From: a virus
Taxonomy: Duplodnaviria > Caudoviricetes
IMG/VR virus record: IMGVR_UViG_3300034130_000016
Coordinates: 1 to 57,109 of that record
Strand: one strand, 5' to 3'
DNA: 57,109 bases
The position numbers were made by a program, and so were the translations under genes. A model generated the notes under the pieces. It was not told the DNA's origin. It did not search any database and saw only the letters and a program-made list of their open reading frames with translations. Shown in pieces: positions 2,474 to 57,109 of this stretch; the first letter of the stretch is position 1, and every line of letters starts with the position of its first letter.

Positions 2474-2656
2474 ATGGACCGCGACAAGAGCCGCTGCATC
2501 GTCAAGATCGGCACACCCGAGGAGCTGCACGAGTGCGGCCAGCCCTGCGAATTCCTGACCGCTCTGGAAGCCAGCGCCAAGGGGCTGTACTCCGGCTGGC
2601 ACCACGTCGACACCGCCACCCGGGACCACAACGCCGTACCGAGGAGCTGGATCTGA
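2474..2656 (+). CDS. small Cys/His protein
   Basis: RBS GGGGAGG; HECGQPC...WHH. Confidence 0.65.
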   Translation: MDRDKSRCIVKIGTPEELHECGQPCEFLTALEASAKGLYSGWHHVDTATRDHNAVPRSWI

Positions 2657-3345
2657 TGCACACCGAAACCGTCACCTCATACGCCTGGTGGGGCGCCCTG
2701 CTCATCCTCTCCCTGCTGGCCGGGATCTACGTCGGCTGGAAGATCATCGGCTTCGTCCACGAGCGCGGCATCACCGCCCGGATCACCCAGGCCCGCCCCG
2801 TCGGAATGCGCATCGTCCTGCTGGTCGGGGACATCACCACCCAGGAAGTCGATGCCATCGTCAACGCCGCCAAGCCCAGCCTGCTCGGAGGCGGCGGAGT
2901 CGACGGGGCGATTCACCGCGCGGGCGGTCCCGCCATCCTGGCCGAATGCCGCGAGATCCGCGCCACGCTGTACCCGCGCGGCCTGCCCACCGGCCAGGCC
3001 GTCTCCACCACCGGCGGGAACCTGAAGGCCGCACACGTGATCCACACCGTCGGCCCCGTGTACGGCTGGCCCAAGGACGACGCCGAGGACCAGCGGAGCA
3101 CCCTGCGATCCTGCTACACGGAGTCCTTGGCTCAGGCGGATACCCTCGGCGCCCGCACGGTCGCCTTCCCGCTGATCTCCGCTGGCGTGTACGGATGGCC
3201 CAAGGACGACGCCGTCCGGCAGGCCCTGACCGTCCTGACCCGCGCGCAGACCGCCGTGCAGGAGGTCCGCATGGTGTTCTTCGACGACGACACCTACCAG
3301 ATCGCCAAGCGTGTGGCGCTCACCCTCACCACCCAGCAGAGCTAG
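2656..3345 (+). CDS. macrodomain (YmdB/MacroD-like ADP-ribose hydrolase) with N-terminal TM helix
   Basis: GDIT, DAIVNAA, GGGGVDGAIH, HTVGP and AFPLISAGVYG motifs; hydrophobic WWGALLILSLLAGIYVGW before the domain. Confidence 0.92.
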   Translation: MHTETVTSYAWWGALLILSLLAGIYVGWKIIGFVHERGITARITQARPVGMRIVLLVGDITTQEVDAIVNAAKPSLLGGGGVDGAIHRAGGPAILAECREIRATLYPRGLPTGQAVSTTGGNLKAAHVIHTVGPVYGWPKDDAEDQRSTLRSCYTESLAQADTLGARTVAFPLISAGVYGWPKDDAVRQALTVLTRAQTAVQEVRMVFFDDDTYQIAKRVALTLTTQQS

Positions 3346-3939: not shown

Positions 3940-5877
3940 ATGGGGCTGCTGAACAGGAAGGCGAAGCTGGTACCCGCCGGGGGGCTCGAAGGCCCCGGTA
4001 CCCGGCCCGCCAACGCCCTGATCGGCGCCGCCGTACCGATCAACCTGGGTGACGCCGCCTCCTGGCAGATGTTCAAGCTGGGCGACCACCGCTGGCAGTG
4101 GGAGGCGTGGCGCCACTACGACATCTGCGGAGAGATGCGGTTCGTCGTCAACTGGATGGGCAACTCCATCAGCCGTTGCCGCATGTACGCCGCCCAGGTC
4201 ACCGATGACGGTGTGGTCGGGGACGAGGTGGAGGACGCCAAGGTCAAGCTGATCGCCGAGACCATGTTCGGCTCCCCCGCCGCGAAGGCTCAGGCACAGC
4301 GCCTGATGGGCATCAACATGATGGTGGCCGGTGACTGCTACATCGTCGCCGAGGGCTATCAGAACGCCGAGTCCGACAAGTGGTACGTCTGCTCCTCCTC
4401 CGAGGTGTACCGGCGCGGCGACGACATCATGGTGCGCCGTTCCATTACCCACGGCGGGGGCCAGTACAAGCTGAACCCGCAGACCGACCTGTTGATCCGG
4501 GCCTGGAATCCGCACCCGCGCCGGTACGACGCCGCCGACTCCACCGTGCGGGCCATCCTGCCGGTGCTGCGCGAGCTGGAGCAGTGCACGAAGCGCGTGT
4601 TCGCCGAGCTGGACAGCCGCCTGGCCGGTGCCGGGATCCTGCTGCTGCCCGACAACATCGACTTCCCCCGCCCGCCGCAGGAGACGCCTGGGACGCCGCA
4701 GCGTACGGGCGTCGAGGGCTTCGCCGACCTGCTCCAGCGGACCATGGCCACCTCGATGCAGCAGCGCGATTCGGCCGCCGCCATCGTGCCGATCATCTTG
4801 CAGGCGTCCACCGAAGCCCTCGACAAGATCAAACACTTGACGTTCGACTCGTCCATCTCCGACAAGATCACGGAGATGCGTAAGGCCGCCGTCGAACGCA
4901 TGGCGATGTCCCTGGACATCCCGCCCGAGGTGCTGATCGGCATGGGCGGCTCCAACCACTGGTCGTCGTGGCAGATCGAAGAGTCCTCGATCAAAACCCA
5001 CATCGAGCCGCTGCTGATCCAGCTAGCCGACGCCCTGAACGTCGGCTACTTCCAGCCCGCCCTGAAGGCCGCCGGTGTCGCCGACCCGGAGAAGATGACG
5101 CTCTGGTTCGACATCGCCGCCCTGACGGTGCGCCCGAACCGCTCCGACCAGGCGTTGCAGTTCTCCGACAAGGGGCTAATCTCCGCGAAGGCCGCCCGCG
5201 ACAACGCCGCCTTCACCGACGACGACGCCCCCGAAGCGAAAGAGCTGCTCTACAACCTCACCAAGGCCCTCGTGCTGGCCCAGCCCAACTATGCCGGTGA
5301 CCCCGAGGTGCAGAAGATCCTGGGCCTGCCGAAGATCTCCCTGCCCGCCCCCCCGGCCGCGCCAGCGGCGCCCGGCACCGACCTGATGCCCGGCGACCCC
5401 GGCTACGACACCGCAGGTTCCGACCCGGCCGCGCGTGGCCTGCCGCAGTTCCCGTCCGTGCAGGACGCCGAGCAGGGCAACGTCCCCCCGGCCAAGGGGA
5501 AGCAGAAGCTCGGCCAGTTGGCCGCCTCCGCCTCAGCGGTCGACGCCAGCCTGTTCTACGCCGCCGACAGCGCCGTCCGCCGCGCCCTGGAGCTGGCCGG
5601 TGGCCGCCTAGTGCCCGGCCCGCAGCGTGCCCGCTATGCCGTTCCGAGGCATGAGCTGCACACCCGGATGGTCCCGGACCGCATCCGGGTGCCCTCCCTG
5701 CTGGCCGGTGCGTGGACGCACGTGCGTGAGCAGGCACCGGCCTTGGGTGTCGATCCCGATGCCTTAGAAACGATCCTGGCGGGCTACTGCACGGAGCTGC
5801 TGGTCAGGGGCGTGGCCCATGAGCCGGATTACCTGAAGTCGATGCTGCACGAGACCCGAGGGGACCTCACGCCATGA
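3940..5877 (+). CDS. portal protein
   Basis: WQWEAWRHYDICGEMRF...SISRCRMY and NHWSSWQI motifs recalled from cluster-B-like actinophage portals; position before MuF. Confidence 0.85.
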   Translation: MGLLNRKAKLVPAGGLEGPGTRPANALIGAAVPINLGDAASWQMFKLGDHRWQWEAWRHYDICGEMRFVVNWMGNSISRCRMYAAQVTDDGVVGDEVEDAKVKLIAETMFGSPAAKAQAQRLMGINMMVAGDCYIVAEGYQNAESDKWYVCSSSEVYRRGDDIMVRRSITHGGGQYKLNPQTDLLIRAWNPHPRRYDAADSTVRAILPVLRELEQCTKRVFAELDSRLAGAGILLLPDNIDFPRPPQETPGTPQRTGVEGFADLLQRTMATSMQQRDSAAAIVPIILQASTEALDKIKHLTFDSSISDKITEMRKAAVERMAMSLDIPPEVLIGMGGSNHWSSWQIEESSIKTHIEPLLIQLADALNVGYFQPALKAAGVADPEKMTLWFDIAALTVRPNRSDQALQFSDKGLISAKAARDNAAFTDDDAPEAKELLYNLTKALVLAQPNYAGDPEVQKILGLPKISLPAPPAAPAAPGTDLMPGDPGYDTAGSDPAARGLPQFPSVQDAEQGNVPPAKGKQKLGQLAASASAVDASLFYAADSAVRRALELAGGRLVPGPQRARYAVPRHELHTRMVPDRIRVPSLLAGAWTHVREQAPALGVDPDALETILAGYCTELLVRGVAHEPDYLKSMLHETRGDLTP

Positions 5878-9409: not shown

Positions 9410-10293
9410 CGGCGCGAGCGCTGGTCACCGGATCGTCGGGGTTCGTCGGTCGGCACATGGCCGCCGAGCTGGCCCGGCGCGGCTGGGACGTGGCGGGGGT
9501 CGACATCGCTGAAGGGTTCGACGCCCTGGAGCATTTCCGGTTCGACACCCGCTGGGACCTGGTGGTGCACGCCGCCGCCTCAGCGCCACACAGGGCCGCC
9601 ATCGACACCGAGCCGCAGCACATGGCCAGGAACCTTCAGTTGGACGCCGCCATGTTCGACTGGGCCGTCCGCACCGGTCAGGGCCGCGTGCTGTACCTGT
9701 CCTCCTCGGCCGCCTACCCGATCGAATACCAGCGCGACAACGGTTACGCCGAGCCGCTGTACGAGGACATGACGGACCTGACCGACGCCCAGGAACCCGA
9801 CTCGGTGTACGGGTGGACGAAGCTGACCGGCGAGCGCATGGCCGCCGAGGCGCGTAAGGCTGGCCTGCGCGTCACCGTGGTCCGGCCGTTCTCCGGCTAC
9901 GGGGAGGACCAGAGCGAGGACTTCCCGTTCCGGGCACTGATCGAGCGGGCACGCCGCCGGGAGGATCCGTTCGTGATCTGGGGCAACGGGGATCAGGTGC
10001 GCGACTGGATCCACATCGACGACGTGATCGGTGGCGCGCTCGCCGTCGTGGAGTCCGGATCTGCTGGCCCGGTCAACCTGTGTACGGGGGTCGGCTTCTC
10101 GGTGGCGGAGCTGGCGTATATCGCCTGCGATCAGGTCGGGCACAAGCCGCGCTTCGAGTATTTGGCGGACAAGCCCGCCGGGGTCGCGTACCGGGTGGGC
10201 AATCCGGCCGTGCTGCACAACTTCTACCGGCCACGGATCAGCCTGCCCGAGGGGGTCGCGCGGGCACTGCAAGATCAAAAACAACCGCTATGA
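9406..10293 (+). CDS. NAD-dependent nucleotide-sugar epimerase/dehydratase
   Basis: VTGSSGFVG (GxxGxxG), LSSSAAY, YGWTK (YxxxK), RDWIHIDD. Confidence 0.92.
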   Translation: MTARALVTGSSGFVGRHMAAELARRGWDVAGVDIAEGFDALEHFRFDTRWDLVVHAAASAPHRAAIDTEPQHMARNLQLDAAMFDWAVRTGQGRVLYLSSSAAYPIEYQRDNGYAEPLYEDMTDLTDAQEPDSVYGWTKLTGERMAAEARKAGLRVTVVRPFSGYGEDQSEDFPFRALIERARRREDPFVIWGNGDQVRDWIHIDDVIGGALAVVESGSAGPVNLCTGVGFSVAELAYIACDQVGHKPRFEYLADKPAGVAYRVGNPAVLHNFYRPRISLPEGVARALQDQKQPL

Positions 10294-10297
10294 TCGC
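10284..10297 (+). promoter_or_regulatory. putative late promoter -10 region
   Basis: ACCGCTATGATCGC, identical to 21809-21822; TATGAT lies 6 nt before ATG 10301. Confidence 0.55.
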
Positions 10298-10300
10298 GGC

Positions 10301-13300
10301 ATGACGACGCTCGGGATGCTGCTCACCGGCCGGGCCAACGGCAAGACCGCTGCGCAGCCTCTCGACATCAACCACCTGGCCGCCACCGTCGGCATCGCCC
10401 AGCGAGACCACATGATCGCCTCCGGCCAGCCCGGGGTGAAGCCGCTCGGAGATCTGCGAACCATCGTCGCCGCGCTCGCCGCATGGATCAACCAGGACGA
10501 CGACGCCCACGAGACCTGCTCCCTGACCGCCTGCCGCACCCCGCTGCACCCCGGCCCCTGCAAGGGCTGGAAGCACACCCTGCACAGCGTCTCCCCGCAC
10601 ATCTGGAAGCAGCTCGAAGACGAGCGGGTCAAGAAGGCCAACGAGCGGCGCGTCAAGCGCATCGCCGACCTCCGCTCGCAGAACAAGCCCATCCCCCGGC
10701 GCCTGCTCACCGAGATCAAGCCCAAGCCAGCCCCCACCGGCCAGCACCCGGCCAACAACGTCAAGGCCGTCCCCCTGGGGCAGGTCAACCAGAAAGCCGA
10801 CCTCGCCGGAGGTCAGGCCCACGCCGCCGGGCAGGCCGTCTCCAACGCCGCCCACGTGCAGGTCAAGACCGCCCCGCCCCTGCCCCTCGGCCCGAAGCAG
10901 AAGAAGCCCACCGTCGCCGGACGCGGACCCGCGTTCGTCATCACCCAGCCCAAGGTCACCGACACCTACAAGCTGGGTAAGGCTGACCAGATCACCCCGC
11001 AGCAATGGGCCGGTCTCACCGATGCCGACAAGGCGACCATCCGCAACGAGCTGACCGCCATCAAGGCGCGCGGGTTCGGCCCGCAGCAGAAGAAGGCCGA
11101 TGAGCTGCTGCTGAAGCTGCACTCAGGCAACAACCCCGGCACCGCCCCGGCGCTGACCCCCGGCACCCCGGGCACGGTGACCACCCCCGGCGGGCACACC
11201 TACCAAAAGGTCAGCCTCACCCCGGGAAAGGTCTCCCTCGGCCAGGCCGTCAAGACGCCGCCCTCGACCGCCCAGGCGGTCACCCACGCCCGCAGCCTCG
11301 ACCAGGCGCACGCCGCCCTGCGCATCACCGAGGCGATCTTCGGCAAGCAGAACACGGACGTCACCAAGCTGGCCGACGCCTTCAGCCAGATGAAGGCCAG
11401 CGGGACCGACATCACCCAGGACCCCAAGTTCCGGATCCTGGTGGACCGGCTGGCGAACGCCGCCCTGAAACTGGCCAGCGCCGACAACATGCCCGGCCTC
11501 GGGCATGGGACGAACGACGTCGGGATCACTGAGTTCAACCATGAGATCCGCGACCACCTGGCGGGCGCTAAGCCCGGCCTTCCGCCGCTGATCAAGCGGA
11601 TGCAGGACCACCACGACAATGCCGTGCTTGGTCCCGCCGTCCCGGCCGCACCCAGCCTGCCTCGCGGTACGCCCGACCTGCTCGACAACGTGCGCAAGGC
11701 GCAGGACCCCTCGGCGAAGCTCAGCCTCGCCGCCCGGACCTACGTCTACCGCAAGCTGTCCAAGGCGCAGTTCGACAGCCTCGACGACGGCACGAAGAAG
11801 AAGGTCCTCGACGACCTGGACGAGCAGATCGCCAAGGGCACCGGCCCCGGCAAGCTCGCCCAGGATCTGAAGGACACGTTCAAGCCGGGCGCGTCCGGGA
11901 CGCCCGCCCCCTCCACCCCGGCGGCCCCGGCCTCGTCGCCGGGCACCCCCTCCACCCCGAACGTCCTGTCGCCGGACGCCCAGCAGGCCCGCGCCGTGGC
12001 TGGCCGCGCCGTGCCCAAGGCGCACATGGCGAAGACCCAGACGGACGCCTACGGCAAACTGTCGAAGGCGGACTTCGATCAGCTCGACTCGACGACGCAG
12101 CGCAAGATCCGCGACGACCTGGCCAATGCGAAGGCGAAGTTCCTCGACCCGAAGAAGCAGCAGGCCGCGCAGCATCTCCTGGATCGTTTTGGATCAACTC
12201 ACACGACTCCGGCGCCGAACGCCCCGGCCGCGCCCGCTGTCGGCACGGGCTACAACGACCCGCAGACCCAGGCCGTCAAGGCAGCCTCGTCCGGCCTGAT
12301 CGACAACGACGAGGTGATCAAGACCGTCGCCCGCCTCAGCCCCGGGCAGGTCAAGAGCCTCTCCGAGGAGGACCGCAAGAAGATCATCGGACGCCTCGCG
12401 TTCGTCGCCACCCATCCGAAGGCCGCCCCGGAGCAGAAGGCCAAGGCCGCCGCCTACAAGCGGATCATCGAGGACGGCTCCCCCGCAGCGGGCGGCAAGT
12501 GGGACCACGCCCCGTCGATCGGCGAGCTGCACGCGGAGGAGAAGAAGACCGGCGCCACGGCCGCCATGGACGCCCTGAAGGCCGCCGAGACGAAGTCGGG
12601 CGCTCTCGGGATGAGCCGCGACGACCGGCTCAAGGCCCTGGGCGCCCTCTCGAAGGCGCAGTTCGACGCCCTCACGCCCGAGCAGCAGCGGAAGATCACC
12701 GACGCCCTGAACGAGCTGCACACCTCGAACAAGAACGTCAACGGCAGCACCGTCCTGGATCCCGCCGCCGGGGACGCGCTGACCAAGTACACCGGCCTGC
12801 ACCCCGGCGTCGCCCGGATGCAGCAGGCCGAGGCTGACTTCCGCGCCGGGAAGATCGACGCGAACAAGCTCTGGGAAGAGATGCTGCACGCCCGGCTCCA
12901 GTCGCCCGGCGCGTACGGCAGCCAGACGTCGCCCGCCGCGCTGCTGGCCAAGGAGAGTCAGCGGATCGCCGAGGACAACCCGAAGCTGCCCCTCTGGCTG
13001 CGCGCCACCATGATCGATAACCCGTACGGCGCCCCCGGCGGCCTGTACCACTCGATCAGCGAAGCCTCGAACAAGTACAACTGGGAAGACGCACCCCGGC
13101 TCTCCTCCTCGGACATCTCCGACCTGTTCTCGGCCAACCTGGACCACCTGGCGGGCGCCCACCCGATCCACGCCGAAGCCGTCAAGGCGCTACGCGAGCA
13201 CGTCATCCTCACCGGCCTGCGCGGCCAGCCCGGCGTGCCCTCGGGGAGCCCCTGGTCCTCGGCCACCCGCAACCATGTCGTCGACAACTTGCTGCACATC

Positions 13301-15943
13301 TCCAGCACCGGCGACCATGACGTACCCGCCGAGCGGCTCCGCGAATTCCACACGCTGTCCCCGACCGCCCAGTCCCGGGTGAAGGCGGTTCTCCGGGAAC
13401 GCCTCGCCAACCAGACCAACTCGTACGCGAAGACCGGCACCTACATCACGTTGCGGGACATCGACGGCGACCCGAAGCTTTCCGACGACGCCGAAGCCGC
13501 CCTGCGTGCCGCCGCCGACAGCTACGCCAACCCGAACAACCTGGACATCTACCGCAAGCTGGATCCGGCTGACTACAACAGGTTGCCTGACTACGTGCGC
13601 GGCTCCATCAACACGCACCTGATGCAGCTCCAGAACCGCGCGGAAGCCAGGCCCCCGGTCCCCTGGACGCCGCAGGACAACCCGTTCAAGGTGATGCCCC
13701 TGTCCCTGGTGGCGCACCTGTCCGGTACCCGCAACGCCTACCACGATCGGGCCACCCGCAACGCCGCCGACATCGCCCAGTACGGCACGAAGATCATCGA
13801 CCCGTCCTCGCGAACCGAGGCGTACCGGTCGCTGGGCTCATTCCAGACCTTCTCGACGCTCACGCCGTTCGAGCGGTCCAAGGTCACCGACGACCTGGAC
13901 AAGATCGAAAACGATTCGTCGTTGACGCTCAGCCAGCGCTACGACGCCGCCTTCACCAAGGACTTCGCCATCGGCGAACCCAAGGTGACCGCCTCGAAGT
14001 TCGACGCGAACCAGATGATGGCCATCGGCTCAGTCAGCCCGAGCCGCACCGTGGCCGATCACGTCGCCGCCTCCAACCTCAACAACCTGCCCAAGTCCGA
14101 GTACGACTCGCTGCCCCCGGCATTCCGCGACGCCATCGACGAGCGGATCAAGTCGCTGCCCGGCACCGACCAGCAGGTGCTCAACGCCAAGTTCCACCCG
14201 AACGCACCGCAGACCGCCACCCCGGCCGGAGTCACCCCGACGACCGTGCAGACGGGCGTGCCGCCGCACGTGCAGGCCGCCCTGGACACCATCTACGGCG
14301 TACACCCCAAGTCGCACACCATGGCGCACCAGCTCTCCACCTACGGGGCGCTGCGCGGCGGAGACTTCAACAACCTGAACAGCCAGGAACAGGGCCACCT
14401 CCTCGGCGACCTGTCGTTCATCCAGACCACCGCCAAGGGGCCGTCCGCCGCCAAGGCGAAGCTGCTGATCGACCGGTTCACCCCGCCCGGAACCCCGTCC
14501 GGCCACGTCCCGACCGGCGCGATCATCCCCCCGGCCAACGCGGTTGCCGGTCAGGTCCGCTACGCCACCCCGCTCAAGGGCCTGGCGAAGGCGAAGGACT
14601 CCGGCAAGTCCGGCGACGGCTGGATGTCGCTTCCCGGCGGCGGGCGGGTCTGGGGCCACCACGGCGCGGCTGGTCTGCTGCTCCAGCACACCGACTCCCA
14701 GACCGGCGAGAAGCGCTACCTGATGGTGCAGCGCGGTCCGGCCATCTCCGACCCCGGAAAGTGGACGTTCCCCGGCGGCGCCTCCGACTCGAAGGAGACC
14801 CCGCACGAGGGTGCGACCCGCGAGACGATCGAGGAGCTGGGTCTCAAGGACGACGTGTTCAAGGACGCCCTGGTCCACGGCGACCACACGTTCACGGTGC
14901 CGAACAGCTCGTGGAAGTACACGACGGTGGCCGCGTCCGTCCCGACGATGATCAAGCCGAACCTGACCACCGCCCACGCCCGCGCCGAGACCTCCGACGC
15001 GAAGTGGATGACCCTCGACGAGATCCGGGCACTCGACAAGGCGGGCAGCCTGCACCACCCCATTGCGGGCGGCAAGCTGGAGCAGAACGTCATCAGCCTG
15101 TACCCGACCGGCGGTACCGGCGTCACGTTGGGGCAGGTCGCCCGGCCCGGACCGGTCACCAAGCGGCTGGGGCGCCTGAACATGCCGTCCGGTGGCCGCC
15201 AGGCGCCCGCCAACTTCAACGCCTGGCCGCACCCCCACAAGCAGTCGAAGGGCAAGAACCTGGTGTCGGACAAGACGGCCATCGACTCGATGCGGCAGCA
15301 GGTCAAGCAGGACCGCAAGCTCTACGACGGCAAGACCGCTGACGGTCGCCTGGCTGCCATCGGCGCCATGCAGGGCTTCGACGACACCCCGACCGTGGAG
15401 AGCAAGGCCGAGATCGACCGGCTCCTGGCGACCGGCGACTACATCGAGGCGTGGCGTGGCGTCACCGGCGCCGGTGGCGGCTGGTCGGCACGTAGCCGGG
15501 GCGGCTCCGGCGGCAAGACGGCTGCGGACATCAACGAGGAGATGCGAACCGGCCCCGCCTACTACGGCAAGGGGATCTTCGGGAACGGCTACTACCTGGC
15601 GACCAGCAAGCGGGTTGCCGAGCAGTATTCGGACCACTCCAAGGGTTCGATCGTGCGCGTCCTCATCCCGAAGAGCGCCGTCATGGAGAAGTACGACAAG
15701 GTAGAGCGGGAGGCGCAGGCCAACTCGTCGCGGATCTCGAAGGCCAAGGGCTCCAGCTACGAGGTCAGCACGTTCTGGGATCCGGGCCGCTGGGGGGCGG
15801 CCAGGGGCCTGGACGGTATCGAGATCAACCCGCATCACCGCGCCCACGGCGGCGGCGGCGCGGGGCACGTCGCATCCCACGGAAAGCCCGCCTTCAACTG
15901 GCTGAACCGGTCCGTACTGATCGTCCAAAAGGAGCCCGGATGA
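10301..15943 (+). CDS. giant (1880 aa) repeat protein with Nudix hydrolase and C-terminal ADP-ribosyltransferase-like domain
   Basis: Nudix box GGASDSKETPHEGATRETIEELG with MutT3-like DGW..G.RVWG..GAAGLLL; terminal WRG...GKGIFGNGYYLATSKRVAEQY...LDGI; about 10 helical repeats. Confidence 0.85.
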   Translation: MTTLGMLLTGRANGKTAAQPLDINHLAATVGIAQRDHMIASGQPGVKPLGDLRTIVAALAAWINQDDDAHETCSLTACRTPLHPGPCKGWKHTLHSVSPHIWKQLEDERVKKANERRVKRIADLRSQNKPIPRRLLTEIKPKPAPTGQHPANNVKAVPLGQVNQKADLAGGQAHAAGQAVSNAAHVQVKTAPPLPLGPKQKKPTVAGRGPAFVITQPKVTDTYKLGKADQITPQQWAGLTDADKATIRNELTAIKARGFGPQQKKADELLLKLHSGNNPGTAPALTPGTPGTVTTPGGHTYQKVSLTPGKVSLGQAVKTPPSTAQAVTHARSLDQAHAALRITEAIFGKQNTDVTKLADAFSQMKASGTDITQDPKFRILVDRLANAALKLASADNMPGLGHGTNDVGITEFNHEIRDHLAGAKPGLPPLIKRMQDHHDNAVLGPAVPAAPSLPRGTPDLLDNVRKAQDPSAKLSLAARTYVYRKLSKAQFDSLDDGTKKKVLDDLDEQIAKGTGPGKLAQDLKDTFKPGASGTPAPSTPAAPASSPGTPSTPNVLSPDAQQARAVAGRAVPKAHMAKTQTDAYGKLSKADFDQLDSTTQRKIRDDLANAKAKFLDPKKQQAAQHLLDRFGSTHTTPAPNAPAAPAVGTGYNDPQTQAVKAASSGLIDNDEVIKTVARLSPGQVKSLSEEDRKKIIGRLAFVATHPKAAPEQKAKAAAYKRIIEDGSPAAGGKWDHAPSIGELHAEEKKTGATAAMDALKAAETKSGALGMSRDDRLKALGALSKAQFDALTPEQQRKITDALNELHTSNKNVNGSTVLDPAAGDALTKYTGLHPGVARMQQAEADFRAGKIDANKLWEEMLHARLQSPGAYGSQTSPAALLAKESQRIAEDNPKLPLWLRATMIDNPYGAPGGLYHSISEASNKYNWEDAPRLSSSDISDLFSANLDHLAGAHPIHAEAVKALREHVILTGLRGQPGVPSGSPWSSATRNHVVDNLLHISSTGDHDVPAERLREFHTLSPTAQSRVKAVLRERLANQTNSYAKTGTYITLRDIDGDPKLSDDAEAALRAAADSYANPNNLDIYRKLDPADYNRLPDYVRGSINTHLMQLQNRAEARPPVPWTPQDNPFKVMPLSLVAHLSGTRNAYHDRATRNAADIAQYGTKIIDPSSRTEAYRSLGSFQTFSTLTPFERSKVTDDLDKIENDSSLTLSQRYDAAFTKDFAIGEPKVTASKFDANQMMAIGSVSPSRTVADHVAASNLNNLPKSEYDSLPPAFRDAIDERIKSLPGTDQQVLNAKFHPNAPQTATPAGVTPTTVQTGVPPHVQAALDTIYGVHPKSHTMAHQLSTYGALRGGDFNNLNSQEQGHLLGDLSFIQTTAKGPSAAKAKLLIDRFTPPGTPSGHVPTGAIIPPANAVAGQVRYATPLKGLAKAKDSGKSGDGWMSLPGGGRVWGHHGAAGLLLQHTDSQTGEKRYLMVQRGPAISDPGKWTFPGGASDSKETPHEGATRETIEELGLKDDVFKDALVHGDHTFTVPNSSWKYTTVAASVPTMIKPNLTTAHARAETSDAKWMTLDEIRALDKAGSLHHPIAGGKLEQNVISLYPTGGTGVTLGQVARPGPVTKRLGRLNMPSGGRQAPANFNAWPHPHKQSKGKNLVSDKTAIDSMRQQVKQDRKLYDGKTADGRLAAIGAMQGFDDTPTVESKAEIDRLLATGDYIEAWRGVTGAGGGWSARSRGGSGGKTAADINEEMRTGPAYYGKGIFGNGYYLATSKRVAEQYSDHSKGSIVRVLIPKSAVMEKYDKVEREAQANSSRISKAKGSSYEVSTFWDPGRWGAARGLDGIEINPHHRAHGGGGAGHVASHGKPAFNWLNRSVLIVQKEPG

Positions 15944-19325: not shown

Positions 19326-20036
19326 TTATCCCTCGTCGTAGTAGACGGAGTCTGCGTGTGATTCCCAGCCCGCGTCGCGGGACCGCTCCCCGTCGGCGAT
19401 CCAGGCTTCCGTGATGCGCCGGGTGATGGCCGCGTTGAGGTTGAACCCCTTCAGGAAGGACTCGATCTGGGTGCGCGTCCAGGGGGTCGCGTACTCCTCG
19501 GGCATCCGCTGCCCGGCCTCCTGCACGGAGCGGCGCGCGGCGGCGATCTGCTTCTCCCAGTGGTGTCCCACTTCTACCCTCCCCATCGCGGTCGGTGCCG
19601 GTGGCACGTACGTGCCGTTGAGAACGTCCAGGGTGCGCTGGTCCGGCCCCCCGTAGAACTTGGTCAGTACGGCGTTCGGGATGCTCGGATCCTTGACCAC
19701 CTGGGCGAACAGCGTCATGCACGCCTGGAGCTTGCGCCGGTCGATGTCGCTGAACATCAGTCGCCGATGCTGGAGGACGGCCATGGAGCACTCAGCCAGC
19801 CTCAACCGCAGGACCGGATTGTCCAGGTAGGCCAGCGCCTCGTCGCGGTCGGCGAGCCCGTAGTATCGGGCGGTCTCGCTCTTCGCCAACGCCCTGAGCT
19901 GCGGAAACACGTACCACATCCAGTGGGTGCGCTTCACGCCCTGGCGGATCTCCCGCAGGATCTGGGGGTACTTGCCCTGCTGGGCGAAGGTGAACCGGCT
20001 CACCCCCGTAGGGGTTCGGGTGATGGCGTAGGTCAC
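19326..20036 (-). CDS. DUF1810 (Rv1873-like) protein with C-terminal extension
   Basis: EIRQGVKRTHWMWYVFPQL, EALAYLDNPVL.RL.EC and D..KLQACMTLF motifs; GTG start with GAGGAGG RBS. Confidence 0.82.
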   Translation of the reverse strand: MTYAITRTPTGVSRFTFAQQGKYPQILREIRQGVKRTHWMWYVFPQLRALAKSETARYYGLADRDEALAYLDNPVLRLRLAECSMAVLQHRRLMFSDIDRRKLQACMTLFAQVVKDPSIPNAVLTKFYGGPDQRTLDVLNGTYVPPAPTAMGRVEVGHHWEKQIAAARRSVQEAGQRMPEEYATPWTRTQIESFLKGFNLNAAITRRITEAWIADGERSRDAGWESHADSVYYDEG

Positions 20037-20052
20037 GGCTGCCTCCTCGTAT

Positions 20053-20119
20053 CTGTCGGCCCTAAGCATACACGTCTCTTCCTGCCCGGCACAAGGAGGT
20101 GTACCCTGAAGGCAGACAG
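20053..20119. promoter_or_regulatory. divergent promoter pair, each with an operator copy (c 20053-20073, d 20099-20119)
   Basis: CTGTCGGC-CCTAA-GCATACAC and GTGTACCC-TGAAG-GCAGACAG, each next to an RBS. Confidence 0.6.
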
Positions 20120-20134
20120 ACAAGGAGACACGAC

Positions 20135-20287
20135 ATGAGGACCCACCCCCACCCCATCGGGATGTTCCTGGCATTCCTGCTCCTCGGCCCGTTCATCCTC
20201 GCCGTCGCCCTGGTGGTCCTGACGGTTTACGGCGTGGTGCTGGTCGCCAGCGTCGTGGCCGCCGCCCTCAAGATCGCCTTCGAGTAG
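20135..20287 (+). CDS. small membrane protein
   Basis: AAGGAG RBS; very hydrophobic 50 aa. Confidence 0.65.
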   Translation: MRTHPHPIGMFLAFLLLGPFILAVALVVLTVYGVVLVASVVAAALKIAFE

Positions 20288-51909: not shown

Positions 51910-52644
51910 ATGACACGCCGACCGAAGCGCAAGGGAAACGACCACTCTCGCGCCCCCGAAGTACTCAACGCCCTGGAGCGCAAAGAGCTGGAGTACGACC
52001 CGGCGATAGACCCGTGGCTGAAGCAGCCCGCCGAGTCGCCCCGCAACCACGGCATGTTCCTGATGTACCGCGACCTGGGCCGGATCCGCACCGTCGCCCA
52101 GGTCGCGGAGATGTCCTCGCTCACGTACGGCGCCGTGACCCGCATCGCCCGGTTCGGCAAGTGGGTGGAGCGGGCCGGACGCTGGGATGCCGAACTGGAC
52201 CGCATCGCCGGTATCCGCCTCCAGGACGCCCGCGAGGAGATGGCCCGCCGCCACGCGACCGCCGCCGGGAAACTGATGAAGAAGGCGCTGGAGCGCCTGG
52301 AGACCCTGGACATCTCCGCCATCAGCCCGCACGCCCTCGTGCTCATGCTCGACACGGCCGCCCGCATCGAGCGGGCCGCCCTGGGCCTGGAGACGCTCAA
52401 CAAGGGCGCCACCACCGGCCAGCAGACGTCCGTTACCGTGGCCGCCAGCACCGACGCCGCCGGGAAGCCCGCCGTCCGCGTCGAGGTCGGTGTGCAGCAC
52501 GACCGGATCATGGCGACGCTGGACGAGATGGTGAAGCGCATGAGCCCCGACCAGATCGCCGCCGGGTACGAGGAGCTGACCGCGAGCGCGAAGGAGGCGC
52601 TGCGCGGCCTTGACGCCGCCCTTCCTGCACCTCCTCCGCAGTGA
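51910..52644 (+). CDS. terminase small subunit candidate (HTH)
   Basis: ES......F..YRDLG..RT, WVERA..WD; upstream of TerL. Confidence 0.65.
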   Translation: MTRRPKRKGNDHSRAPEVLNALERKELEYDPAIDPWLKQPAESPRNHGMFLMYRDLGRIRTVAQVAEMSSLTYGAVTRIARFGKWVERAGRWDAELDRIAGIRLQDAREEMARRHATAAGKLMKKALERLETLDISAISPHALVLMLDTAARIERAALGLETLNKGATTGQQTSVTVAASTDAAGKPAVRVEVGVQHDRIMATLDEMVKRMSPDQIAAGYEELTASAKEALRGLDAALPAPPPQ

Positions 52645-52880
52645 GGGCAGGCGCGGCCGGGGGTCGTCCTGCCGGGCGAATGGACGACCCCCGGGCACCG
52701 CGCCCATGCGAACGGATCGGCCTGCACAACTGCGCGCCGCTCGGCCGCTGGGCGAACCACGACGCCAGCCACGACCCGTGCATGAGCTGCGGATACGACC
52801 GCCTGGATCCGGCACCCGGGCAGTGCCTCCAGCCGAAAGGCCACTGGTCAGCGCCATCCCCGGATAGTTTTCGATCATGA
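52641..52880 (+). CDS. small Cys/His ORF
   Basis: GTGA/ATGA overlaps bridge TerS and TerL. Confidence 0.4.
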   Translation: MRAGAAGGRPAGRMDDPRAPRPCERIGLHNCAPLGRWANHDASHDPCMSCGYDRLDPAPGQCLQPKGHWSAPSPDSFRS

Positions 52881-54331
52881 GCCTGTCCGCCGCCCAGAAG
52901 CTCGCCCTGCTCCCTCCGCCCCTGCGCCGCATGTGGCTGAGCAAGCAGACCCGCGAGACTCTGGAAGACATCCAGAAGGGCGCCTGGTGGTGGCTCGGAC
53001 GCCCAGAACAGTTCCGTCCGCCCGGCGACTGGCTGGTCTGGCTGATCCGCTCCGGCCGAGGGTGGGGCAAGACCCGCACCGGCGCCGAAGACCTCCTGGA
53101 CCGCGTGTTCGAGCACCCGGTAGACGCCTTCGGCCAGCGCACCGAGTGGCTCGTGATCGCCGAGACGCTCAACGACTGCCGTACCGCCTGCATCGAGGGC
53201 AACTCGGGCCTGCTGTCGATCCTGCACCGCATGGGCCTGGAGAAGGGCAAGGACTTCTGGTACCGCAAGTCCCCCAAGCTGATGATCGAATTCGCCACCG
53301 GCCAGATCATCTACTTCGAGGGTGCCGACAACGCCGACGTCGGCCGTGGCTTCAACGCCGCCGGTGCCTGGCTGGACGAGCTGGCGAAGTGGCGCTACAC
53401 CTACGACGCCTGGTACGAGGGCCTGCTTCCGTCGCTGCGCGCCCCGCTGATCGGCGACCATCCGCGCGCCGTGGTCACCACCACCCCGAAGCCGATCAAG
53501 CTGCTGATCGAGTGGCAGCACGAGACGGACGGCACGGTCGTCATCACCACCGGCTCGATCTTCGACAACATCATGAACCTGAGCCGGAAGGTCATCGACG
53601 CCCTCAAGAAGAAGTACGAGGGCACCCGGGCCGGACTCCAGGAGCTGTACGGCTACCTCCTCGAAGAGATCGAGGGCGCGCTGTGGAACCGGCCCATGAT
53701 CGAAAACAATCGCATCAAGGCCGCTGACCTGCCCGAACTGAAGCAGGTCGTCATATCCATGGACCCCGGCGCCACCGGGGCAGGCGACGAAACCGGGCTG
53801 ATCGCCGCAGGCCGCGACTACCACGACCGCGACTACGTGCTGGCCGACTGGACCAAGAAGATCGTCGGGCACGCCGCCGCCCGCCGCGCCTGGCAGATGT
53901 TCATCCAGTACGACGCCACCTGGATGGTCATCGAGACCAACATGGGCAAGAAGTGGCTCATGCAGGTCATCACCGACGCCTACGCGGAGATGCAGAAGGA
54001 GCACGCCCCCGGGTGCGACGACGAGGACTGCAAGGGATGCCTCTTCCCGCCCGGCCCGCCCCCGGTCAAGGAGGTCACCTCTCTGGCCGGGAAGAAGCTG
54101 CGCGCCCAGCCCGTCGCCTCCCGCTACGAACAGAACCGCTGGCACCACGTCGGCACGTTCATCGAACTGGAGGACCAGATGTGCACGTGGGTGCCCGAGG
54201 ACTCGGCCAGCCCCGACCGCATCGACGCCCTCGTGCAGGCCGGACTGTTCCTCATGGGCCGGGAGCACACGCTGGTCCGCATCGCCGCCCCCGCCGACAC
54301 GCTCATGCCCGCCAGCTCCGCCTACGGGTAG
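52877..54331 (+). CDS. terL: terminase large subunit
   Basis: Walker A SGRGWGKT, Walker B WLDE, TTTP, nuclease DP...SPDRIDA. Confidence 0.95.
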   Translation: MSLSAAQKLALLPPPLRRMWLSKQTRETLEDIQKGAWWWLGRPEQFRPPGDWLVWLIRSGRGWGKTRTGAEDLLDRVFEHPVDAFGQRTEWLVIAETLNDCRTACIEGNSGLLSILHRMGLEKGKDFWYRKSPKLMIEFATGQIIYFEGADNADVGRGFNAAGAWLDELAKWRYTYDAWYEGLLPSLRAPLIGDHPRAVVTTTPKPIKLLIEWQHETDGTVVITTGSIFDNIMNLSRKVIDALKKKYEGTRAGLQELYGYLLEEIEGALWNRPMIENNRIKAADLPELKQVVISMDPGATGAGDETGLIAAGRDYHDRDYVLADWTKKIVGHAAARRAWQMFIQYDATWMVIETNMGKKWLMQVITDAYAEMQKEHAPGCDDEDCKGCLFPPGPPPVKEVTSLAGKKLRAQPVASRYEQNRWHHVGTFIELEDQMCTWVPEDSASPDRIDALVQAGLFLMGREHTLVRIAAPADTLMPASSAYG

Positions 54332-54414
54332 GCTGGCCGCCGGACGATCCCAGAGCGTGAGCCCTGGGGCGGCCGGGAACCCGGGATCAATCGCGGCAGT
54401 GCTGCGACACTCAA

Positions 54415-54515
54415 AACGCCCCGACTACCCCCGCGAGGCGAATGCCAGGGGGCTCGGGGCGTTCCCGTGTCCGGATACAGCAAGGCCCGGTCCCACGGGG
54501 GAGGACCGGGCCTTG
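54415..54515. terminator. tandem hairpins between convergent genes
   Basis: AACGCCCCGA/TCGGGGCGTT and GCAAGGCCCGGTCC/GGACCGGGCCTTGC. Confidence 0.6.
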
Positions 54516-54542
54516 CTGCGCCTTCTCAGGAGCCCCTCGATG

Positions 54543-54803
54543 CTACCGCCGCGTCCGCCGGGGCCGCCGCAGCCGCGCCAGCCGCGCAGCCCGCACACCC
54601 TTCAGGCGCTCGATCAGTTCCGACATGTCCTGGCCGTCCAGGGCGGCGAAGGTGTTGACGGTGGCGATCCGCTCGGCATAGGCCAGCTCGGTGCGGCAGA
54701 GGTCGGTGGCGAAGCGGACCTGCTCCTGCGACGGGCGGTACCGCCGCCGCCAGGGGTTGATCACTGGGGGCTCGAATACGTCCTTCTCCAGTACCTGCGC
54801 CAT
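54543..54803 (-). CDS. hypothetical protein
   Basis: GGAGG RBS; PSQEQV.F..DL motif. Confidence 0.6.
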   Translation of the reverse strand: MAQVLEKDVFEPPVINPWRRRYRPSQEQVRFATDLCRTELAYAERIATVNTFAALDGQDMSELIERLKGVRAARLARLRRPRRTRR

Positions 54804-54976
54804 CGCGCCCACCGCCTCCATCGGGGTGTTCCAGGGTGTTCCGTCCTGTTTCAAGCGTGACGGAAGATCCCGAGATGTCAAGCCTGAATCGACGGCACCT
54901 GTCCACTCGGCATTGACAGCGGCCACCAGGACGACTAGCGTGGAACCCGACAGACCACCCGAGGAGGAACGCCCCC

Positions 54977-55291
54977 ATGGACGTAGGAATCGCCGACACG
55001 ATCAACCGGATCTTCGCCCAGAAGCTCGCCGGGGGTCTCGACACGCTCTACCCCCGGTGGCATGAGCACCGGTCCCCCGTTGCCGCAACCCTGATGGGTG
55101 ACAGCTCGGACCGGGCATGGCTCGTCGGCTTCCTCGTCCAGCCGATCCCCGACCTGGAGATCGATTCCGTCCCGGCGGACGCCGATTGGGACAACCTTTT
55201 CTCCAACATCCGGGCCGAGATCCTGGCCCGCCGTGACCCGGAAACCCCACCCACCGAGACGCCCGCGACTCGTCCCGGCGACGTGGTGTAG
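54977..55291 (+). CDS. hypothetical protein
   Basis: GAGGAGG RBS; TTGACA (54913) promoter-like element upstream. Confidence 0.7.
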   Translation: MDVGIADTINRIFAQKLAGGLDTLYPRWHEHRSPVAATLMGDSSDRAWLVGFLVQPIPDLEIDSVPADADWDNLFSNIRAEILARRDPETPPTETPATRPGDVV

Positions 55292-55303
55292 GGTCACGAC
55301 TGA

Positions 55304-55396
55304 CGGTGGGTGCCGGTGAGGCCAACGCCTCCTTGGTCTGTCAACCCGAGCGACAAGCCGTTTTGCTCGGGAGGTCGGCCGAACCGGTACCCACCG
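55304..55396 (+). ncRNA. candidate structured RNA
   Basis: 14-bp closing stem CGGTGGGTGCCGGT/ACCGGTACCCACCG with nested helices. Confidence 0.45.
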
Positions 55397-55401
55397 CCCC
55401 C

Positions 55402-55471
55402 GGGGGTGTAGCTCAGTGGTAGAGCCAAGGTGTTGAAGCCGACGACGCAGGTTCGATTCCTGCCCCACCCA
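55402..55471 (+). tRNA. degenerate tRNA-like element 1 (no valid anticodon arm)
   Basis: TAGCTCAGTGGTAGAGC D-arm and GCAGG-TTCGATT-CCTGC T-arm; 2 acceptor mismatches. Confidence 0.6.
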
Positions 55472-55503
55472 CGTATCGCACCCGCACCCAGGAGGACGTC
55501 GCA

Positions 55504-55686
55504 ATGCCCAAGCTCAAGCTTTACAAGGTCGGCACCAACGGCCGGATCGCCCTCGGTGGCTACGCGACCGAGGAGTTCTACACCGTCGAGAAGGAAGACG
55601 ACGGCACGATCGTCCTGTCCCCGGTCGAGGTGACCACGACCGGCACCAAGCGCGAGGTGGAGGACGACGACCCGTTCACCGCCTGA
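55504..55686 (+). CDS. AbrB-like small DNA-binding protein candidate
   Basis: AGGAGG RBS; KV..NGRIAL...EDDGTIVLSP. Confidence 0.6.
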   Translation: MPKLKLYKVGTNGRIALGGYATEEFYTVEKEDDGTIVLSPVEVTTTGTKREVEDDDPFTA

Positions 55687-55703
55687 AATCCGCAGGAGGA
55701 GAC

Positions 55704-55910
55704 ATGACCAAGAAGACCCGGCACCTCGGCAACGAGTCCGGCAAGTCGTCCAACAAGTGGTTCGGCCGCAGGGGTCACCCGAAGGGGTACGGCGCTAGCG
55801 CGGGGGACGGCAGGACCACCGACAGCTCAGTGGCCGGAAAGATCGTCCCCGTGTTCAAGAAGGCCAAGGCCACGCCCAAGACGAAGCCGAAGTGGCCCTG
55901 GTACAAGTGA
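55704..55910 (+). CDS. small basic protein
   Basis: AGGAGG RBS; Lys-rich 68 aa. Confidence 0.6.
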   Translation: MTKKTRHLGNESGKSSNKWFGRRGHPKGYGASAGDGRTTDSSVAGKIVPVFKKAKATPKTKPKWPWYK

Positions 55911-55950
55911 CAGACCCACGGCACCCGGCCGCCATCGGGTGCCGTGCCCA

Positions 55951-56098
55951 GGAGAGGTTCCCGAAGCGGCCCACGGGTGAGGGTAGGTATTTCGTTCCAC
56001 GGTAGGCGGACTCGCGGCCCGCTGGATGGATCGAGCCCTATCCCAAGACGGCCAGGTTGCGCTGGCCGCCGTCAGTTCGAATCTGACCCTCTCCACCA
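55951..56098 (+). ncRNA. tRNA-like element 2 (148 nt) with extended anticodon arm and encoded CCA
   Basis: GGAGAGG/CCTCTCC-A-CCA acceptor; CCCG/CGGG D-stem; GTCAG-TTCGAAT-CTGAC T-arm; long variable arm; 49-nt insert. Confidence 0.75.
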
Positions 56099-56222
56099 GG
56101 AACCCGACGGGGCACCGGTCGGCGGACTGAGGTACACCACAGGTGCCAAGCGCCGGGGATGCCCCCACGCCTCGGGGGAGGAGGCCACGAACGGCGCGAG
56201 ACACCCCGGAGAGACGGGGGGA

Positions 56223-56287
56223 GGATCGGGCAGCGTCCCGCAAGGGGTACGGCCGTACGGCTGCTGGCTTCGATGCCAGCCGATCCA
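56223..56287 (+). ncRNA. tRNA-like element 3 (acceptor stem and T-like arm only)
   Basis: GGATCGG/CCGATCC-A and CTGGC-TTCGAT-GCCAG. Confidence 0.5.
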
Positions 56288-56295
56288 CGGAGGCA

Positions 56296-56346
56296 GCCAT
56301 GCCTAGCTGACATACCCGACGGGGTTCAGCCCAAGCGAAAAATGGC
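56296..56346 (+). ncRNA. repeated structured motif, copy 1
   Basis: GCCAT..CCTAGCTG-[stem]-GCCCAAGCGAAAA-ATGGC. Confidence 0.55.
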
Positions 56347-56403
56347 ACCACCCGGCCGTGGAGGCGACGGCCCCACGGTCGGGTGGGCACCACAACCGAA
56401 CAC

Positions 56404-56527
56404 GGGGACGTAGCTCAGTGGAGGAGCGTGCTCGGTCGTGCAGCCTGTGCGCACAGGTGAATCGGTCCACGGCCTGATCAGCCGAGGCGAAGAGCGAGGT
56501 ATGGAGGTTCGAGTCCTCCCGTCCCCA
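56404..56527 (+). ncRNA. tRNA-like element 4 (124 nt) with a 58-nt insert in place of the anticodon loop
   Basis: GGGGACG/CGTCCCC-A; GCTC/GAGC D-stem; TGCTC/GAGCG anticodon stem; GGAGG-TTCGAGT-CCTCC. Confidence 0.75.
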
Positions 56528-56543
56528 CGGAGGGAAAATGGGA

Positions 56544-56599
56544 CCTGGTTGACCTAGCTGTCCGGGGAGTAGCTACCCCGGCCCAAGCGAAAATCCAGG
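56544..56599 (+). ncRNA. repeated structured motif, copy 2
   Basis: CCTGG..CCTAGCTG-[stem]-GCCCAAGCGAAAA-T-CCAGG. Confidence 0.55.
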
Positions 56600-56717
56600 C
56601 ATCCGGCCGCGACGGGCCTTACCGCTGGTAACAGGAACGGCCAGGAAGGACCCACCGCCCGGACACGGGACACACGGTGAGCTGCGGATGCGCAGAGACC
56701 CGGACTGGTCAAGTACC

Positions 56718-56781
56718 GCCGTGGTCCAGCGTAGAGACCTTCTACGTGGGGGGTAACCCGGGTTCAAGTCCCGGCACGGCA
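56718..56781 (+). tRNA. degenerate short tRNA-like element 5 (possible ACG loop remnant)
   Basis: GCCGTG/CACGGC-A; CCGGG-TTCAAGT-CCCGG; shrunken D-arm. Confidence 0.5.
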
Positions 56782-56986
56782 CGGATGCACTGGTGGCATG
56801 AGTTCCCCCGGCTTGCCGGGCTCAACACGAGACCAGTGCTGTCGACCAGCAATGAGCGCAGACGCCTAGCGTCAGGGCCGAGCGGGTCGGCGGGTCGCCA
56901 GGGCGTACCGAGGGAAGCCCCCGTGGCCACGGCGTGGCTTCACGCCCTGGCGACCTACCACATGTCGACACCTTGGAGGAGGAGCA

Positions 56987-57109
56987 ATGGCGAAGTCACG
57001 GCCCGCAGGAGGCCGACCGCCCCGCAGGCGCGGACGCGGAGGCGTCGGCCCCGGCCCCGGCTACCGCACCAGCGGAACCGGCAAGGGCAGCACCCACAAG
57101 TCGTCGTCC
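56987..57109 (+). CDS. 5' part of the junction-spanning small membrane protein (continues to 135)
   Basis: GGAGGAGGAG RBS, ATG at 56987, open through the overlap. Confidence 0.75.
   Translation, partial: MAKSRPAGGRPPRRRGRGGVGPGPGYRTSGTGKGSTHKSSS
57083..57109. repeat. 27-bp terminal direct repeat (copy 2)
   Basis: Identical to 1-27. Confidence 0.95.

Follow-up and report, generated by a model that had tools for sequence, protein, structure and literature searches.

At positions 55951–56098 of the window (the whole stretch of DNA analyzed here, 57,109 bp), a sequence with the outline of a class II tRNA carries 49 nucleotides where an anticodon loop would be expected. This locus raises the question of whether such a gene is an interrupted tRNA, a relic of one, or an RNA that uses the tRNA shape for some purpose other than decoding.

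Genome Context and Coding Potential of the Region

The window is a complete phage genome with 68% GC, assembled as a circle and classed as 100% complete with direct terminal repeats. Its first and last 27 bases are identical (1–27 = 57083–57109), which indicates a circular assembly or a terminal repeat. An ORF that starts at 56987 and crosses the genome junction codes for a small protein, basic at its N-terminus and containing a hydrophobic segment. The host is likely actinobacterial, because the portal protein (approximately 3940–5877) shows 39% identity to the portal of Actinoplanes phage phiAsp2 and the genome encodes a WhiB protein; the 57-kb soil/peat phage family with the element probably infects actinobacteria. 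A TerL search of genome contigs retrieved only distant prophage-like relatives (31–41% identity), with no host identified among them.

In total, 63 ORFs were called, with 43 compared to Pfam and 10 to PHROGs (overlapping sets), and the remaining 20 belonging mostly to the structural module; no tRNA-related enzyme is seen among the ORFs scanned (Pfam 43, PHROGs 10). Pfam confirms WhiB, Macro, NUDIX, and DUF1810 domains (ORFs 1005–1268, 2656–3345, 10031–15943, and 19326–20174). The NUDIX domain occupies residues 1557–1670 of a giant 1970-aa protein, in which Pfam reports no ADP-ribosyltransferase domain at E ≤ 0.001.

In the stretch from TerL to the portal gene, coding signal (GC3 0.93) is confined to two small ORFs at 55504–55686 and 55704–55910. 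Both have coding-type GC3 (0.93) and lie inside the array of tRNA look-alikes described below; one product is of 60 aa, the other is a very basic protein of 68 aa, and neither matches Pfam or PHROGs. The long ORFs overlapping the element have GC of 0.69/0.69/0.69 at the three codon positions, vs. GC3 of 0.93 in real genes, and on this flat profile a coding role was rejected.

Anatomy of the Element

The terminase genes and the parts of the element are located as follows.

51910–52644: TerS
52877–54331: TerL
55951–55957, + strand: acceptor stem, 5' strand GGAGAGG, 7/7 Watson–Crick pairs with 56088–56094
55960–55963 with 55974–55977, + strand: D arm in the MFE fold, CCCG, a 10-nt loop with GG, CGGG
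55981–55987, + strand: anticodon-position stem, 5' strand GGGTAGG, pairs with 56037–56043
55988–56036, + strand: insert of 49 nt, conserved base and variable tip (fold and homologs)
56037–56043, + strand: anticodon-position stem, 3' strand CCTATCC (fold and covariation)
56049–56055 with 56062–56068, + strand: variable arm, 7 bp, loop GTTGCG at 56056–56061
56071–56075 with 56083–56087, + strand: T arm, GTCAG, TTCGAAT, CTGAC
56088–56094, + strand: acceptor stem, 3' strand, followed by A at 56095 (discriminator) and CCA at 56096–56098

The original prediction had described a scaffold of this plan, with a perfect acceptor stem, D and T arms, a variable arm, and an insert enclosed by a stem at the anticodon position. 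Every listed part is found in its place, and the MFE fold yields the entire class II cloverleaf, plus a TCCA/TGGA helix within the insert. The anticodon-position stem has seven pairs, one of them G–U. The fold energy of the element is −67.2 kcal/mol (z = −2.13), a value equaled by 7 of 200 shuffles. When the 57-kb genome is scanned on both strands for a TTCRA T-loop whose 5-bp stem directly adjoins a 7/7 acceptor, only two sites are found, 55951–56098 and 56404–56527.

The acceptor, D, and T arms, the conserved T-loop, and the GG-containing D-loop of a canonical tRNA are all present in the element; what is absent is the stem of 5 bp (6 bp if the 26:44 pair is counted) that closes a 7-nt loop having U33 and, at position 37, a purine. 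Default ARAGORN finds 0 tRNAs, and Rfam gives no tRNA match at it, either at the gathering score or at E ≤ 10. ARAGORN in intron mode does find the element, as a class II "tRNA-Gly" with a mismatched anticodon stem, i.e., with a poor model; relaxed settings of the same mode produce 39 "tRNA" calls genome-wide, which we regard as noise.

Directly 3' of the CCA end, a hairpin is seen at 56104–56122 (CCGAC, loop GGGGCACCG, GTCGG). It is kept in one homolog (L011) with two compensatory pair changes and an identical loop. About 100 nt 3' of the element travel with it, and in another relative (L001) they stand behind a different tRNA-like unit.

Homologs and Selection on the Fold

Searching IMG/VR with TerL yielded 63 loci, of which 23 belong to close relatives (77–87% TerL identity, genomes mostly of 51–59 kb). 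BLAST with the element matches L011 and a part of L007; motif patterns added L016, and a single metagenome scan added L079, L101, and L093, the last of which matches L007 over the element. The other metagenome pattern matches (44/47) are unrelated, most coming from one protein-coding gene. A covariance model, R1, was built from six sequences (window, L011, L007, L016, L079, and L101) and run on 70 sources, where these six score 121–143 bits. The next-best matches are more distant class II-like paralogs, L004 11408–11521 (53.7 bits) and L015 8714–8855 (47.2 bits). The former is an uninterrupted paralog of the family, in which a stem of 8 bp at the anticodon position carries the 7-nt loop UUGAUCC, the variable arm has 13 bp, and ACCA is encoded; in a BLAST search of phage records only its T arms were matched, giving no isotype assignment.

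Further searches were largely negative. R1 finds no further strong copies in the whole records of five relatives; a D-arm pattern yielded 120 stretches, almost all due to chance, with R1 recognizing 2 of 80 fetched loci, one being the known L004 contig. An exact 21-mer of the element has 0 matches in viral contigs, the region 54500–57109 has no DNA similarity match among 50,697 phage records, and the element has none in E. coli genomes.

The element lies just after TerL in the window, L011, and L016, and approximately 5 kb downstream in L007. The family is, judging by this distribution, small and dispensable in most relatives, since the element is present at only 3 of the 23 close loci. CCA is encoded in 2/6 sequences, the window and L011, and is not encoded in L007, L016, L079, or L101.

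Alignment A1 (MAFFT) of the six sequences shows a consistent pairing pattern. In the acceptor, anticodon-position, variable, and T helices, 92.9% of cells are standard pairs, compared to 39–52% with the 3' partner slid by 1–3 columns, and 11/26 pairs are changed on both sides. The observed pairing and covariation values are reached by 0 of 500 shuffles, although this count is not a probability and shared ancestry inflates the statistic. The same four helices are independently predicted by RNAalifold. Three of seven pairs covary in the acceptor stem; four of seven are changed on both sides in the variable arm, and three of five in the T arm, where 100% of cells are paired. MAFFT misaligns the D arm and the L016 anticodon-position stem; direct reading of the sequences shows a D stem CCCG/CGGG in five of them and, with a compensatory change, CCCA/TGGG in L016, while the anticodon-position stem is kept in 5/6 and is replaced in L016 by CCTACG/CGTAGG, different in sequence and still complementary. 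The claim of a real tRNA-shaped class II body is thus borne out by covariation in four helices.

Several unpaired positions do not change at all. Invariant in 6/6 are the variable loop GTTGCG together with the pair that closes it (GGUUGCGC), the U that opens the insert (T38), and the GAGC that precedes the second strand of the anticodon-position stem (invariant stretch G83–C87). Purifying selection evidently acts on the L-shaped core made up of the acceptor, D, variable, and T arms, and also on the base of the over-long anticodon-position arm; by this pattern, the element is a genuine RNA gene of tRNA shape, with a class II body maintained by selection. Invariant loops amid changing stems argue for specific contacts made by the RNA itself; a specific partner is favored because the loop sequences stay the same while the stems change.

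These data bear on the possibility that the element is a decaying tRNA pseudogene, or an attP integration relic, with no function at the RNA level. The element is indeed missing from most relatives, the acceptor stem of L101 is weakened, and the array is a mosaic; however, compensatory changes in all four helices indicate selection on the RNA fold, which leaves this explanation scarcely credible. An attP relic in particular is unlikely, because no integrase or resolvase is encoded: neither a tyrosine nor a serine recombinase was found in the complete genome.

Decoding and Splicing

The arm at the anticodon position has nine pairs and a bulge before the first internal loop, followed by the insert. 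Class II tRNAs of a Solirubrobacteraceae metagenome-assembled genome (MAG) reached via a distant TerL relative (n = 5) have a 7-nt loop on an anticodon arm of 6 pairs, which follows the D stem directly, so that the arm of the element is approximately 3 bp longer than in real class II tRNAs. After any excision, the putative anticodon would stand approximately 3 bp farther from the elbow than it should, and its loop would have G37 and C38. In the modeled fold, the element has no anticodon loop and none can be created by excision; it is predicted to be non-decoding, because the arm is over-long and no excision gives a canonical loop. The original prediction that the RNA would be unable to decode holds in this respect, as does its exclusion of a group I intron: the insert is of 49 nt (26–66 nt in the family), group I introns have a minimum size of roughly 200 nt, and no Rfam intron model matches.

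One may still ask whether the locus is an interrupted tRNA-Ser, with a protein-spliced intron 5' of the anticodon whose removal leaves a U-U-(C/U)GA-G-C loop with anticodon CGA or UGA. The junctions suit this reading, as [C/U][C/U]GAGC stands before the 3' strand and U directly after the 5' strand in 6/6, and YGA is a serine anticodon on a serine-type body. In the window, the 3-nt bulge, the 4-bp helix pairing the putative anticodon, and the mismatch loosely recall a bulge–helix–bulge, and the L004 paralog at 11408–11521 has its uninterrupted 7-nt loop UUGAUCC on a similarly long stem. However, excision would leave a stem of 7–9 bp, where real class II tRNAs have 6 bp, and a loop with G at position 37 and C at position 38; ARAGORN intron mode provides no good model, and the insert is far below group I size. 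The window shows one 3-nt bulge, a 4-bp helix, and a 1 × 1 mismatch in place of a true bulge–helix–bulge, and even this geometry is lost in L011 and L016. Domains of the splicing endonuclease (PF01974), RtcB (PF01139), and RNA ligase (PF09414) are absent from the complete phage genome, the controls being positive in control genomes; no tRNA splicing endonuclease is known from bacteria. We consider an interrupted tRNA-Ser very unlikely.

As a separate candidate, tmRNA was rejected: the ARAGORN tmRNA search is negative, and pair 3:70 is A–U, not G3:U70.

Variability of the Insert

The insert is of 49 nt in the window, 34 in L011, 61 in L007, 41 in L016, 66 in L079, and 26 in L101. Its base follows a common plan in 5/6 sequences, i.e., a few unpaired 5' bases, a short UCG/YGA helix, and then a 4-bp helix; four of these five have a pyrimidine–pyrimidine mismatch (U–U, or C–U in L007). 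The tip varies in length and sequence and is the least conserved part, with only U…GAGC at the base invariant. Tip types are shared across body subtypes, the window having the same type as L007, and L011 the same as L101.

Since the tip varies, and seems free to do so, the insert is probably not a conserved cargo. This goes against the proposal of an aptamer or guide-like cargo, as does the search for complementarity: the best antisense match between the insert and the phage genome is of 14 nt, a length reached by 12 of 200 shuffles, so that guide-like cargo was rejected. Self-complementary 6-mers and a GGAC shared by the tips are expected by chance at this GC content (hand estimate) and were likewise set aside.

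Class II Origin and Aminoacylation

Run on the same Solirubrobacteraceae MAG, R1 ranks class II tRNAs first: tRNA-Tyr(GTA) with 42.4 bits, tRNA-Ser(GGA) with 39.9, and tRNA-Ser(GCU) with 39.6, then tRNA-Leu(CAA) with 30.0, tRNA-Ser(UGA) with 29.2, and tmRNA with 28.4, class I tRNAs scoring below. The window and L016 have exactly the acceptor stem of both MAG tRNA-Ser genes (GGA and GCU), GGAGAGG/CCTCTCC, and the L004 paralog has the acceptor stem of the actinobacterial tRNA-Tyr from this MAG. On these similarities, the body of the element derives from a class II tRNA, being most like tRNA-Ser or tRNA-Tyr. The 3' junction, reading [C/U][C/U]GAGC with U directly after the 5' stem strand, leads to a similar suggestion: its YGA could be a relic of a serine anticodon, CGA or UGA.

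The element shares with tRNA-Ser and tRNA-Tyr the D arm, the long variable arm, and the T arm, and with MAG tRNA-Ser the acceptor stem. It differs from tRNA-Ser and tRNA-Tyr in lacking the 7-nt anticodon loop, in having an arm longer by approximately 3 bp, and in carrying the 49-nt insert, and from MAG tRNA-Ser in having discriminator A instead of G and a 5-nt spacer before the variable arm.

Recognition of tRNA by SerRS does not involve the anticodon, and the original prediction had suggested that the RNA may be aminoacylated on this ground. In such a reading, the RNA would be charged by SerRS or another class II enzyme and, being non-decoding, would serve as an amino-acid sink or donor, or as a scaffold for an aptamer or guide in the insert. 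The acceptor identity with MAG tRNA-Ser in the window and L016, the long variable arm, and the encoded CCA speak for charging. Other features speak against it. The discriminator is A, A, A, U, and U among the homologs, with C or G in the weakly paired end of L101, vs. G in MAG tRNA-Ser; acceptor pairs 2 and 3 differ in L011, L007, and L079. The spacing before the variable arm sets the arm orientation read by SerRS, and the element has five unpaired nucleotides here vs. 0–1 in real tRNA-Ser. The reading is further opposed by the insert tip being the least conserved part, by its 14-nt antisense match being equaled in 12 of 200 shuffles, and by the absence of tRNA-dependent transferase domains from the 43 ORFs compared to Pfam. 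Hence the SerRS idea is partly supported, with the acceptor stem in its favor and the discriminator, acceptor pairs 2/3, and spacer against it; charging does not look conserved, and a charged RNA of this kind seems quite unlikely to be the explanation.

An Array of tRNA Look-Alikes Between Terminase and Portal

Comparison of the relatives' loci shows the element as a single unit within a hypervariable array, which lies between terminase and portal and is made up of tRNA look-alikes. ARAGORN makes 66 calls in the loci of the 23 close relatives (L001–L020, L025, L026, and L055; 1–5 kb downstream of TerL), and 30 of these calls have 2- or 4-base "anticodons"; several other calls lack U33, e.g., those with loops CCCAAAG and CGCCAAG. 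A crude scanner finds 101 tRNA-shaped elements in 24 arrays, of which only 2 combine a 5-bp stem with a 7-nt loop carrying U33 and R37; these counts are approximate, since some D arms are parsed wrongly. Array content differs between phages of approximately 80% TerL identity, and modules are common piecemeal to different relatives, with breakpoints at tRNA ends.

Two other families of the array are conserved as well. A tRNA-like family of 71–75 nt, present in approximately ten relatives (e.g., L002 10147–10221, L012 9060–9132, and L017 9698–9770), has a perfect body, a 6-bp anticodon stem with the tetraloop UCAC, and compensatory acceptor changes; the middle of its copy in the window (55402–55472) is different and poorly paired. 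The second scaffold of the window, 56404–56527, also belongs to a conserved family, whose versions in the relatives are of 194–203 nt (L003 9724–9926, L007 9299–9492, L012 9318–9511, and L017 10376–10570). A GTGCGCAC hairpin is common to the relatives' versions, most copies also have a CTGATCAG-like loop, and the insert ends with UGCGAA (GCUCA in L003), resembling the 3' part of an anticodon loop.

At approximately 1296–1331, where relatives carry a second tRNA-like gene cluster, the window has a 9-bp hairpin with a T-loop-like loop GGTCGAACC followed by an unpaired A, which resembles a bare acceptor/T-arm minihelix.

The element could act in cis, its fold being only a processing or punctuation signal, i.e., an RNase P/RNase Z cleavage site, and perhaps a stabilizer, by which a long late transcript is divided into short RNAs, small mRNAs among them. 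tRNAs punctuate mitochondrial transcripts in this way, and mascRNA does likewise in MALAT1. Several features of the array are consistent with such a role: tRNA-like folds alternate with hairpin modules and with the two small ORFs of GC3 0.93, relatives have exchanged modules at tRNA ends, the anticodon end is not conserved across the array, and a bare minihelix is seen at approximately 1296–1331. In addition, no sigma-70-like promoter is found inside 54300–57109, although the scan covers this one promoter type. On the other hand, cleavage needs only the acceptor stem, T arm, and elbow, whereas the element also keeps an invariant GUUGCG loop, an invariant U…GAGC at the insert base, and a 7-bp variable arm preserved by compensatory changes. 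As the explanation of the element, a pure processing signal seems to us unlikely, if less so than charging.

Comparison With Known tRNA-Like RNAs

By analogy, the closest known relatives in kind are RNAC and RNAD of phage T4, annotated in NC_000866 as species 1 RNA (70908–71046) and species 2 RNA (71053–71171) in the tRNA cluster. For decades, they have been proof that phages make such RNAs. In the RNAC fold, which is closed by paired 5' and 3' ends, the T arm (GGGUUCGAAUCCC) is accompanied by a long extra arm, and another long arm takes the place of the anticodon arm. Like the element, both T4 RNAs lie within a cluster of phage tRNA or tRNA-like genes, have tRNA-like ends, and lack an anticodon arm. 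Unlike them, the element has encoded CCA, an acceptor stem of the serine type, and a class II cloverleaf that is complete, D arm included. No homology is detectable, as R1 run on L119 matches neither rnaC nor rnaD and finds only the T4 tRNA-Ser, with 21.1 bits. The T4 RNAs have been experimentally seen as small stable RNAs, while the element is a prediction from sequence. The element would be a distinct form within an old class of phage tRNA-like stable RNAs.

Other non-decoding, tRNA-shaped RNAs that undergo RNase P/Z processing are mascRNA (from MALAT1) and the tRNA-like RNAs of murid gammaherpesvirus 68, and engineered tRNA scaffolds stabilize an RNA placed at the anticodon position. Unlike the element, all of these are eukaryotic or synthetic. 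Rfam families of mascRNA-type or tRNA-like processing give no match at the element, and the part of the element at the anticodon position is not conserved.

A 2022 omics paper describes RNAC and RNAD as late RNAs "of yet unknown functions" (PMC9697503). The abstracts and passages searched, among them passages of PMC10690425, PMC9693318, and PMC9697503, contain no description of anticodon-less class II mimics in actinophages.

Possible Function

We tentatively suggest, at somewhat less than an even chance, that the element is a non-decoding tRNA mimic that arose from a class II tRNA, with most resemblance to tRNA-Ser, is processed as a tRNA, and acts in trans via its tRNA body, possibly as a decoy. 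The RNA would be transcribed late, together with the terminase-to-portal region. Host RNase P and 3'-end enzymes would release it by cutting at the tRNA-like ends, and it would accumulate as a stable, CCA-ended RNA of approximately 145 nt. It would then act in trans, with a host factor being bound and titrated through the tRNA body. Such a factor would read the acceptor end, the elbow, and the long variable arm, and not the anticodon, as might be the case for, e.g., a tRNA-directed defense toxin or a tRNA enzyme; the RNA would carry no specific cargo and would not decode. The trans-acting decoy step is a point that we purely infer.

We favor a trans-acting mimic or decoy over a pure processing signal, because the invariant loops argue for a specific partner. 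Some observations nevertheless weigh against the mimic. Acceptor pairs 2/3 and the discriminator vary between homologs, contrary to what a single isotype-specific partner would suggest; CCA is encoded in only 2/6 sequences, the element is present at only 3/23 close loci, and the covariation comes from only six related sequences. A processing role in cis would likewise keep the acceptor stem, T arm, and elbow.

In a narrower form, the RNA could be an anti-defense decoy, i.e., a tRNA-Ser-shaped sponge, with its long variable arm and CCA end, for a host abortive-infection toxin that selects tRNA-Ser by the variable arm and modifies the acceptor end; we regard this specific role as distinctly improbable. 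A toxin of this kind is the DUF1814 nucleotidyltransferase MenT3 of M. tuberculosis, which recognizes tRNA-Ser through the long variable loop and adds nucleotides to the CCA end (PMC11162799). By analogy, tRNA-directed toxins that ignore the anticodon, e.g., MenT3-like ones, form a candidate class of partners for the trans-acting mimic.

Codon supply and the replacement of cleaved host tRNAs are the usual explanations for tRNA genes in phages. The phage family studied here keeps tRNA shapes under selection while the anticodon is discarded, and therefore the role of these RNAs would run via the tRNA body, i.e., via processing enzymes, synthetases, or tRNA-directed toxins. Standard annotation with ARAGORN and Rfam overlooks such genes entirely. 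The serine-type origin, the conserved base of the arm, and the natural variants of the tip provide a defined set of constructs for tests of processing, charging, and decoy activity. If the decoy reading is true, the terminase–portal arrays of this phage family would be libraries of isotype-specific RNA decoys.
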